From: an archaeon
GTDB taxonomy: Archaea; EX4484-52; WAPT01
Assembly (NCBI GenBank): GCA_029258795.1
Contig: JAPDKB010000009.1
Span: 22,564 to 86,563, forward strand
DNA: 64,000 bases
Direction of reading: 5' to 3'
Shown: positions 5,462 through 7,044 of the stretch, piece by piece
Numbering within the stretch: position 1 is the stretch's first letter
Layout: each line of letters opens with the position of its first letter
Position numbers and translations under genes: made by a program
The notes under the pieces: model-generated
The model's database searches: none
The model's input: only the letters and a program-made list of their open reading frames with translations
Told to the model about the DNA's origin: nothing

Positions 5462-7044
5462 AGGAGGTGATCCAGCCGCACCTTCCGGTACGGCTACCTT
5501 GTTACAACTTAGCCCCCCTCGCGGAGCCCTAGTTCCACCCTCCCGGAAAGAGAGGACTTCACTAGGACCCCACTCGGGTGGCTTGATGGGCGGTGTGTGC
5601 AAGGAGCAGGGACGTATTCGCCGAACGATGCTAACGTTCGGCTACTAGGGATTCCGCCGTCACGACGGCGAGTTGCAGCCGTCGATCTGTACTGAGACCG
5701 GGTTTCGAGGATTAGCTTCCCCTTTCGGGGTCGCATCCCATTGTCCCGGCCATTGTTGCCCGCGTGTAGCCCGGGGGATTCGGACCATACAGACCTGCCG
5801 TCGCCCGCTCCTTCCTCCCGCTTGGCGCGGGCAGTCCCCCATGAGTGCCGGTGCCACAAGCGTGACACCGTCGCAACATGGGGCGCGGGTCTCGCTCGTT
5901 ACCTGACTTCTCCTGCCTACGGCGGAGCCCTCCAAATGCTCCGCATTTGTAGGTAACAGGACGCCTCACGGTACGAGCTGACGGCGGCCATGCAATACCT
6001 CTCAGCGCGTCAGGTAAGCCCTTCAGGCTGACCGTCATCCTGCTGTCACCCCCGGTGAGGTTCCCGGCGTTGAATCCCATTAAACCGCAGGCCTCACCCC
6101 TTGTGTGCTCCCCCGCCAATTCCTTTAAGTTTCAGCCTTGCGACCGTACTCCCCAGGCGGCCCGCTTAACGGCTTCCCTACGGCACGGCCGAAGCTCGAG
6201 ACTTCGGCCATACCTAGCGGGCATCGTTTACAGCCAGGACTACCCGGGTATCTAATCCGGTTCGCTCCCCTGGCTTTCGCCCCTCACCGTCGGACCCGTT
6301 CTAGCCGAGCGCCTTCGCCACAGGTGGTCCCCCCGGGATTACAGGAATGTGCTTGCGCAAGCAAGCACATTAAAGCGAGCTTGCTCGCGAAATTTCACCC
6401 CTACCCCGGGAGTACCCTCGGCTCCTCCCGGTCCCAAGGTGGGCAGTTTGTCCGGCAAGCCCTGCAGTTTTCTGCAGGATTTCACCGGACACTTACCCAC
6501 CCGGCTACGGGCGCTTTAGGCCCAGTAATCGCGGCCGCCACTTGCGGGTCCGCTATTACCGCGGCGGCTGCCAGCGGTATTGCCCCCCGCTTATTCCCGG
6601 AGCTGTTTAGGCTCCGGAAAAGCCTGCACCCGAAGCGAGCGCAGGCACTTCGGCTGACTCCGTCACGGTTGCCCGCATTGCGGAAGTTTCGCGACTGCTG
6701 CGCCCCGTAGGGCCTGGGGTCGTGTCTCAGACCCCATGTGGGGGCTCCTGCTCTCACAGCCCCTACGGATTATCGGCACGTCAGGTATTTACCCTGACGT
6801 CAACCTAATCCGCCGCACCCCCACCCTCGGGCGCTTACGCTTTCGGGGATGGATCCTTCCAGACCTCATCCCCTATGGGGGATTAGCCTCAGTTTCCCGA
6901 GGTTATCCCCCACCCGAGGACAGGTTAGGTACGTGTTACTCACCCGTCCGCCGGTGCTCTCGGCCTAGAAAGGCCAAGAGCCCCAGACTCGCATGTCTTA
7001 GTCCCAGCCGAATAGCAGCGGCCTCTGGCAGGATCAACCAGAAT
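5462..7044 (-). rRNA. rrs: 16S rRNA, ~1583 nt, with a ~45 nt insertion
   Basis: The reverse complement begins ATTCTGGTTGATCCTGCCAG and ends GGATCACCTCCT, with many universal 16S blocks in between (GTGCCAGCCGCCGCGGTAA, GGATTAGATACCC, TTGTACACACCGCCCGTC equivalents). Confidence 0.95.

Follow-up and report, generated by a model that had tools for sequence, protein, structure and literature searches.

A Putative Bulge–Helix–Bulge Mini-Intron in the 690 Loop of the 16S rRNA Gene of a DPANN-Like Archaeon

Introduction

Archaeal introns of the bulge–helix–bulge (BHB) type follow a defined order: reading 5′ to 3′, an outer helix strand, a 4-nt exon strand, and a 3-nt bulge lead into the inner intron helix, which is followed by a 4-nt intron strand pairing with the exon strand, a second 3-nt bulge, and the other outer strand. 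This layout is known from tRNA introns, and the archaeal splicing endonuclease cuts it following the second base of each bulge. Here, a 64,000-nt stretch of the archaeal contig JAPDKB010000009.1 (the window) is analyzed, whose 16S rRNA gene carries a 46-nt insert in the 690 loop, at the apex of helix 23. With a probability of roughly 85%, this insert (intron 1) is a spliced BHB mini-intron of the short hairpin type lacking an open reading frame (ORF), as judged from the nucleotide sequence of the window and of inserts occupying the same position in other archaea.

Extra helical segments in rRNA genes are also represented by bacterial intervening sequences and eukaryote-type expansion segments, and intron 1 resembles them to this extent. 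Such segments reside in variable helices rather than universal loops and are either retained or removed by RNase III without ligation. We know of none that has a BHB junction and of none that splits the 690 loop.

Short BHB introns of fewer than 50 nt, termed "HP" hairpin introns, constitute an established class in the 16S rRNA genes of Thermoproteales, Desulfurococcales, and Aigarchaeota, and 13 16S loci have been catalogued, at positions 374, 548, 722, 781, 803, 901, 908, 919, 978, 1093, 1205, 1213, and 1391 (Jay & Inskeep 2015, PMC4496867). Intron 1 falls into this class, being shorter than 50 nt, ORF-less, and hairpin-forming, with a putative BHB core at its junctions. Like the HP introns, it lies in a conserved 16S loop and interrupts primer and probe sites regarded as "universal," and as in that class, several introns may occur per gene. 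It differs from them in its locus, 696 being absent from the catalogue (a second insert in the same gene lies at the catalogued 1093), and in its host, which is of DPANN rather than TACK type.

In the Micrarchaeota ARM-1 and ARMAN-2, 16S insertions of ~0.5 kb encoding a hypothetical protein are found at 1093, with splicing stated to be uncertain; the list of 16S insertion carriers in the same 2022 paper is limited to Crenarchaeota, Aigarchaeota, and Micrarchaeota (ARMAN) (PMC8784108). Elsewhere, BHB introns in DPANN rRNA genes are mentioned in passing (PMC6125680). Intron 1 shares with the ARM-1 and ARMAN-2 insertions its location in an rRNA gene of a DPANN archaeon and a splicing status that is here predicted from sequence; in contrast to them, it is 46 nt long, non-coding, and located at 696. 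In the literature that was searched, neither an intron in helix 23 or at 696 nor BHB rRNA introns in Aenigmarchaeota were found described, which is absence of evidence only. Intron 1 would represent a known mechanism and a known class at an uncatalogued but recurrent locus and in different hosts.

The Insert and Its Site

In the alignment to the archaeal small subunit rRNA model of Rfam, 47 bases between GGGGUGAA and UCCUGUAAUCC stand against a single model position, and direct reading of the sequence (GGGGUGAAA|UUUCGCGAGCAAGCUCGCUUUAAUGUGCUUGCUUGCGCAAGCACAU|UCCUGUAAUCC) fixes the insert at 46 nt. Alignment to Escherichia coli rrsH shows that it separates A696 from U697, splitting the sequence GGUGAAAU (E. 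coli 690–697). The bases of the 690 loop are universally conserved; they make contacts to tRNA and mRNA and belong to the interface between the subunits. A first-pass annotation made from the window sequence had described an insertion of ~45 nt in helix 23 of a gene of ~1583 nt. The insertion is real and lies exactly at the coordinates stated there (6347–6392), and the gene length agrees with the 1583 nt covered by the Rfam match; the insert string as quoted there was one U short (45 nt instead of 46).

Two other identities for the insert were considered and rejected. No intron family of Rfam reached its gathering score anywhere in the window; the catalytic RNA core of group I and group II self-splicing introns is conserved and comprises several hundred nucleotides, a size of which 46 nt falls far short. 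The palindrome GTGCTTGC...GCAAGCAC is present as a single copy in the window and hence does not represent a dispersed repeat or miniature inverted-repeat transposable element.

Junction Structure and Proposed Splicing Mechanism

The junctions of the insert can be arranged in the BHB register GGG - GUGA - [AA|U] - UU.CGCGAGCAAGC ... GCUUGCUUGCG.AA - GCAC - [AU|U] - CCU, in which the bulges are bracketed and the predicted cuts marked by vertical bars. In the pre-rRNA, the loop bases G691–A694 (GUGA) would pair with GCAC close to the 3′-end of the intron to form the central helix H. A695 and A696 would join intron nt 1 in one 3-nt bulge, and U697 would join intron nt 45–46 in another on the opposite strand; GGG/CCU would form the outer helix h, and the intron body one long inner hairpin (helix h′, UU/AA plus 11 bp). 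The window thus displays, in relaxed form, a 4-bp helix with a 3-nt bulge on either strand, flanked by an outer and an inner helix. EndA, the tRNA-splicing endonuclease, would cut each bulge past its second base (A696|U and U|U697), and the RtcB ligase would join the exons and probably circularize the intron. Of the known splicing endonuclease types (α4, α2, (αβ)2, and ε2), an (αβ)2 or ε2 enzyme is predicted from the relaxed motif with its A·G mismatch. Ligation would restore the universal GGUGAAAUCC loop; the mature 16S rRNA, computed by removal of intron 1 and of the second insert, would comprise 1492 nt, a normal length, as compared to 1583 nt encoded and 1478 positions in the Rfam model.

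The arrangement closely resembles that of archaeal pre-tRNA introns at position 37/38 with respect to the outer helix, the 4-bp exon–intron helix, the two 3-nt bulges, and the cut rule. In both settings, excision leaves a hairpin loop of 4 + 2 + 1 = 7 nt closed by the outer helix, which in the pre-tRNA case is the anticodon loop. The differences are that the host RNA is a 16S rRNA and that the central helix of the window is relaxed, containing an A·G mismatch.

Same-Site Inserts in Other Archaea

GTDB genomes, one for each species, were scanned together with the JGI metagenomes, using the pattern GGTAGSRGTRAAA - 27 to 57 nt - ATCC-N6-GACCACC, which detects any insert of 20–50 nt at 696|697. 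The scans yielded 36 archaeal 16S loci (14 from genomes, 22 from metagenomes) and two false matches in Bacteroidales. De-duplication left 33 distinct sequences with inserts of 31–49 nt, all located exactly at the 696|697 bond. Six of the genome-scan loci are titled Candidatus Aenigmatarchaeota and two Micrarchaeota, and others "uncultured archaeon"; the metagenome loci carry no taxon names. Two contigs with a 696 intron, L001 (JALWPZ010000216.1) and L016 (CAZRPY010000009.1), come from bins titled "Campylobacteraceae bacterium" and "Methanosarcinales archaeon," respectively, and are probably mis-binned.

In all 33 sequences, exon 1 ends in GU(A/G)AAA and exon 2 begins with U, and conceptual excision restores GGUGAAAUCC in each of them as it does in the window, while the interiors mostly differ between lineages. 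Opposite exon GUAA stands UUAC, UUGC, or UUAU as the intron 4-mer that ends 2 nt before the 3′ junction; exons with GUGA have UCAC at this place. Helix H comprises 4 of 4 pairs in 29 of the 33 sequences and 3 of 4 in the window, L012, L020, and L031.

The junctions were aligned without gaps, giving 26 distinct rows. Here, helix H is 96.2% paired, and one of its pairs is AU in 22 rows and GC in 4, following the exon sequence (GUAA versus GUGA). In helix h′, pairing amounts to 82.7% for the two pairs adjoining the bulge, which occur as 4 and 5 pair types; each of the three pairs of the outer helix is formed in 22–23 rows, and the 3′ bulge base U697 is invariant (26/26). None of 500 shuffles reached either the observed pairing or the observed covariation score, and displacing the 3′ partners by 1–3 columns lowered pairing from 83.8% to 42–55%. 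When six related introns of the GUGA type were folded by RNAalifold without constraints, both H and h′ were recovered, and h′ showed compensatory changes from GC to AU. The BHB intron is favored because the junction motif forms in the window and recurs with covariation in 33 distinct same-site inserts.

Intron 1 also shares sequence with individual members of this family. An exact 16-mer, UUGCUUGCGCAAGCAC, is present both in intron 1 and in its same-site counterpart of the metagenome locus L023; the maximum over 2000 shuffles was 12. In the window, the 16-mer occupies the 3′-end of the intron (6349–6364, minus strand), and in L023 the 5′ side, a placement that suggests shared ancestry with rearranged modules. 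Shorter blocks of the GCAAGC type are common to the window intron and those of L032, L024, L009 (titled Aenigmatarchaeota), and L019, and the sequences suggest common descent of the window intron with these four and L023. Intron 1 probably has no function of its own; it gives the impression of a passenger, passed down vertically, diverging slowly, and akin to the introns that occupy this site in Aenigmatarchaeota.

Many carriers of a 696 insert contain a further one of 37–189 nt, located 26 nt downstream after E. coli 722, directly 3′ of GACCACCUG. This is seen in L010, L019, L023, L025, L028, L030, and L032, and is inferred from the flank in L014. The 722 insert of L010 shows BHB-like pairing (CACC/GGUG) with bulges UG|A and AA|U. 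Inserts of 41–50 nt are found slightly further on, at ~727–729, in L006, L012, L020, and L031. In the Rfam alignment, the window 16S has no neighboring insert at 722.

Folding of the Insert

The isolated 46-mer folds at −22.2 kcal/mol, as compared to −13.3 ± 2.5 kcal/mol for shuffled sequences (z = −3.5; 1 of 200 shuffles as stable), and within a 91-nt context the folding z-score is −5.6 (0 of 200 as stable). In isolation, its minimum free energy (MFE) structure consists of two hairpins, hairpin 1 (GCGAG-CAAG-CUCGC) and hairpin 2 (AUGUGCUUGC-UUGC-GCAAGCACAU). Both are perfect, as the first-pass annotation had noted. What that description missed is that CGCGAGCAAGC and GCUUGCUUGCG are also complementary and can form a single long hairpin. 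In a 90-nt context, the long hairpin has an energy of −47.1 kcal/mol and accounts for ~98% of the ensemble, versus −44.7 kcal/mol and ~2% for the two-hairpin fold; its 11 pairs have probabilities of 0.96–0.98. The long hairpin, which supplies the inner helix of the putative BHB, matters because only this fold frees the 3′-terminal GCAC for pairing with the exon. An attempt to fit a canonical BHB by eye onto the two-hairpin fold failed; the motif needs both the long hairpin and the GCAC–exon pairing.

Hairpin 2 contains an internal exon-like copy, AUGUGC...GCACAU. Internal copies of the exon-like strand (GUAAGC...GCUUAC) are also found in the introns of L009, L019, L028, L023, L032, and L024. 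According to the modeled folds, such a copy can trap the 3′ partner strand of helix H in a local hairpin, which would compete with formation of the splice site.

Table 1. Features of the window and their positions

Feature	Position	Strand	Basis or remark
Intron 1, 46-nt ORF-less BHB mini-intron (predicted)	6347–6392	minus	Rfam alignment, BHB register, restored GGUGAAAUCC
Central helix H, exon strand GUGA (G691–A694)	6395–6398	minus	pairs with GCAC 6349–6352
Central helix H, intron strand GCAC (intron nt 41–44)	6349–6352	minus	register table; homologous 4-mers across family
5′ splice-site bulge AA|U (A695, A696, intron nt 1)	6392–6394	minus	predicted cut after A696
3′ splice-site bulge AU|U (intron nt 45–46, U697)	6346–6348	minus	predicted cut before U697
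Outer helix h, 5′ strand GGG	6399–6401	minus	pairs with CCU 6343–6345
Outer helix h, 3′ strand CCU	6343–6345	minus	pairs with GGG
Inner helix h′, 5′ strand UU + CGCGAGCAAGC (intron nt 2–14)	6379–6391	minus	MFE, pair probabilities
Inner helix h′, 3′ strand GCUUGCUUGCG + bulged C + AA (intron nt 27–40)	6353–6366	minus	MFE, pair probabilities
Hairpin 1	6375–6388	minus	belongs to two-hairpin alternative fold
Hairpin 2, 10-bp stem	6347–6370	minus	MFE of isolated 46-mer; ties up GCAC strand of helix H
Intron 2, 45-nt BHB mini-intron (predicted)	5910–5954	minus	GUUAAGU loop, U1091|A1092 by BHB register; "1093" hotspot
16S rRNA gene	5462–7044	minus	Rfam RF01959 archaeal SSU, 1407.7 bits, model positions 1–1478
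tRNA-Ala(UGC)	5302–5375	minus	Rfam
23S rRNA	2204–5143	minus	Rfam
RNase P RNA, archaeal	1034–1356	minus	Rfam; ~850 nt downstream of 23S

Weighing the Explanations

Several observations weigh against intron 1 being a spliced BHB intron. Its helix H contains three Watson–Crick pairs and the A·G mismatch, and the chance of obtaining at least 3 of 4 pairs is estimated at ~0.15; on the window sequence taken by itself, the BHB is suggestive, not compelling. The unconstrained MFE structure in context prefers two opposed 3-nt loops (AAA/GCA) to the staggered BHB, which in the window costs 4.2 kcal/mol above the MFE, and the H pairs have a probability below 0.01 in the protein-free ensemble. Three sequences of the Micrarchaeota type (exon GCGG) miss the outer helix in the register used. 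The helix-23 region of close relatives was not found: the contigs of the five metagenome-assembled genomes (MAGs) with the most similar cysteinyl-tRNA synthetase (CysRS) either stop at the rRNA operon or do not contain it. Neither EndA nor RtcB is among those window ORFs that were scanned against Pfam, a scan covering only some of the ORFs. Cleavage, ligation, and the enzymes involved are deduced from sequence and covariation. As for the energetic cost, which ranges from 0.5 to 7.6 kcal/mol above the MFE for BHB-constrained folds across the family, it does not argue against the motif, because nearest-neighbor models penalize bulges and the BHB is stabilized by the enzyme.

One alternative concerns origin and is compatible with present-day splicing, namely that intron 1 is the decayed remnant of a larger mobile intron encoding a homing endonuclease. 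Such a history is conceivable, if somewhat doubtful. Hairpin-only and endonuclease-encoding introns share loci in Thermoproteales, and co-conversion with a mobile intron nearby offers hairpin introns a route of spread (PMC4496867). Several same-site carriers do have the second small intron 26 nt downstream, at a catalogued locus; the inserts found there are judged too short to encode a homing endonuclease, a judgment based on their length and not on an ORF scan, and the window has no such neighbor. No larger version was seen at 696 in the scans, which admitted only inserts of 20–50 nt. We know of no endonuclease-encoding intron at this position.

A functional reading of the same intron is improbable. 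It holds that the 696 intron has been inherited across DPANN archaea since ancient times and serves as a ribosome-assembly checkpoint instead of being a neutral passenger. With G691–A694 paired and a hairpin projecting from the platform, the 690 loop would stay inactive up to the action of EndA and RtcB at a late stage of maturation; the unspliced intron would block tRNA and mRNA contacts as well as subunit joining, and the alternative hairpin that locks GCAC would tune the timing of cleavage.

It is very improbable that the 46 nt are a retained expansion segment, in which case they would extend helix 23 in the mature 16S rRNA and ribosomes would operate with a remodeled 690 loop. In the MFE structure in context, AGGGGUG/CAUUCCU does stack with the long hairpin to give an uninterrupted, lengthened helix 23, and same-site segments in relatives show compensatory changes. 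However, the insert splits GGUGAAAU, and its retention would pair away G691–A694. The flanking loop sequence stands at the universal consensus in 33 of 33 sequences, which is sensible only if the loop re-forms; the conserved 4-bp exon–intron helix and the two 3-nt bulges would have no role; and both the length (31–49 nt) and the sequence of the interior are unconstrained. While an expansion segment would be expected in a variable region with free flanks, the flanks of this insert are invariant or near-invariant across carriers. The covarying exon–intron helix, the kept loop flanks, and the free interior therefore argue for an intron over an expansion segment. Among the three options left side by side in the first-pass annotation, which included the remnant of a larger intron, the BHB mini-intron is thus the one favored, on the grounds of the BHB at the junctions and of the geometry and covariation in the 33 same-site inserts, and the expansion segment is disfavored, the universal loop being split and exactly restored by conceptual excision in every case. 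Compensatory changes in relatives that share the segment, proposed there as a refutation of the intron, discriminate nothing because recognition by the endonuclease also needs the intron's own helix.

Equally little probability is assigned to excision without ligation, by which the 16S rRNA would exist as fragments nicked in the 690 loop in the manner of bacterial rRNA intervening sequences. BHB geometry predicts cleavage only, leaving ligation as a deduction, and some organisms tolerate fragmented rRNAs. Yet a universally conserved functional loop is unlikely to withstand a break, two introns would leave the 16S rRNA in three fragments, and the data contain no direct support for this scenario. 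The known BHB introns of archaeal rRNAs and tRNAs are ligated by RtcB (PMC4496867).

That the insert reflects an assembly artefact or a defunct copy of the rRNA gene is the least plausible explanation, the window's own intron sequence not having been recovered from an independent assembly and contigs of close relatives breaking at the rRNA operon, as against homologous-site inserts in 36 independently assembled contigs, a full-length 16S score, the compensatory G1405A/C1496U change described below, and a normal 16S-tRNA(Ala)-23S operon.

The rRNA Operon and a Second Predicted Intron

The rRNA operon has a normal arrangement on the minus strand, in the order 16S-tRNA(Ala)-23S according to Rfam, and its rRNA has a G+C content of 62%. 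No 5S rRNA match was obtained at the Rfam threshold across the whole 64 kb; the 5S gene is unlinked to the rRNA operon of the window. The decoding-center pair G1405–C1496 (E. coli numbering) is normally invariant and is A–U here (CCGCCCAUCA and AAGUUGUAAC; window positions 5587 and 5506, minus strand). As read from the sequence, G1405A and C1496U are a compensatory double change, and the 16S rRNA is under purifying and compensatory selection and is not a pseudogene; it is clearly a working gene, the compensation of G1405A by C1496U being one example.

A second 16S insertion of 48 bases, against 3 in the Rfam model, lies inside CCUGUUA...CAGG. It can be laid out as CCUG[UU|A]CCUAC...GUAGG-CAGG[AG|A], with 4 of 4 pairs in H and 5 of 5 in h′. 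Its conceptual excision gives the consensus CCUGUUAAGUCAGG, with the predicted spliced junction CCUGUU|AAGUCAGG. By these features, intron 2 qualifies as a textbook BHB mini-intron, predicted to be spliced at a hotspot that is catalogued for Crenarchaeota and Aigarchaeota (PMC4496867) and noted in Micrarchaeota (PMC8784108). A smaller third length difference in the 16S gene, 16 bases versus 2 in the model, is located near the 5′-end in a variable hairpin. The displayed parts of the Rfam alignment reveal no intron-sized insert in the 23S rRNA.

BHB motifs in rRNA precursors are EndA substrates (PMC7714728), and the processing stems of the same transcript provide a further comparison. The 23S processing stem of the window contains a near-canonical BHB, in which AGCA/UGCU lies between two AAA bulges above a 17-bp helix (5144–5154 with 2189–2199, minus strand). 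Together with intron 2, this motif lends support to the BHB reading of intron 1. The flanks of the 16S rRNA pair as a long stem (−90 kcal/mol), to which no canonical BHB motif could be assigned. Processing-stem BHBs free a whole rRNA, whereas intron 1 is an internal segment whose removal requires exon ligation.

Host and Nearest Relatives

The best named relatives of the window SecY belong to Aenigmarchaeota or the "DPANN group" (~50–54% identity). CysRS is 78–86% identical to its counterparts in the five NCBI MAGs mentioned above, followed by ~55–58% to Archaeoglobus. The 16S rRNA is ~75% identical to any retrieved locus and 93.6% identical to that of L049 (GCA_053998655.1), the latter over the first 561 nt only. 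Relatives come from hydrothermal-type samples. Given this and the 62% G+C of the rRNA, the host is taken for a DPANN-like archaeon that branches deeply and is thermophilic. Its DNA is represented in sequencing run SRR22064148.

The contigs L041–L044, which carry the CysRS genes of 78–86% identity, end ~1 kb past CysRS, and L049 ends inside the 16S gene at 561. Assembly breaks at the rRNA operon are suspected; only L049 is seen to reach the rRNA. MAGs of the CysRS-related lineages will hence often be without a usable 16S sequence. More distant CysRS contigs show no synteny with the window. The small ORF beside the 23S gene has a single homologue, on a 2.4-kb contig, no exact matches are on record for the V4R gene and the CysRS product of the window, and an exact look-up of the 2-thiouracil desulfurase returned only a 983-bp contig without rRNA.

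Consequences for Intron Catalogues and 16S Surveys

If the BHB reading of the family is correct, the helix-23 loop represents a new recurrent locus beyond the 13 known archaeal 16S intron sites, and short hairpin BHB introns extend from TACK lineages to DPANN-type archaea, where the 16S rRNA may bear several small introns within a few tens of bases (696, 722, ~728). The 696 family would also constitute a natural experiment on what the splicing endonuclease needs, its interiors being free while the bulges are fixed and the 4-bp helix covaries with the exon.

With two mini-introns, the 16S gene is ~91 nt longer than the predicted mature RNA. Intron 1 breaks the conserved 683–707 block, and any probe, primer, or alignment mask that crosses 696 or 1092 will fail or misalign; where the inserts are left in alignments, DPANN-like archaea may be misplaced in trees. 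The "515F" site of the window (6556–6574, minus strand) reads CTGGCAGCCGCCGCGGTAA, with two mismatches to GTGYCAGCMGCCGCGGTAA. Because of the inserts and these mismatches, such organisms are under-counted in amplicon surveys. One of the two mismatches is the compensated partner of a change in the helix-18 stem, which is CCGC/GCGG instead of CCGG/CCGG.

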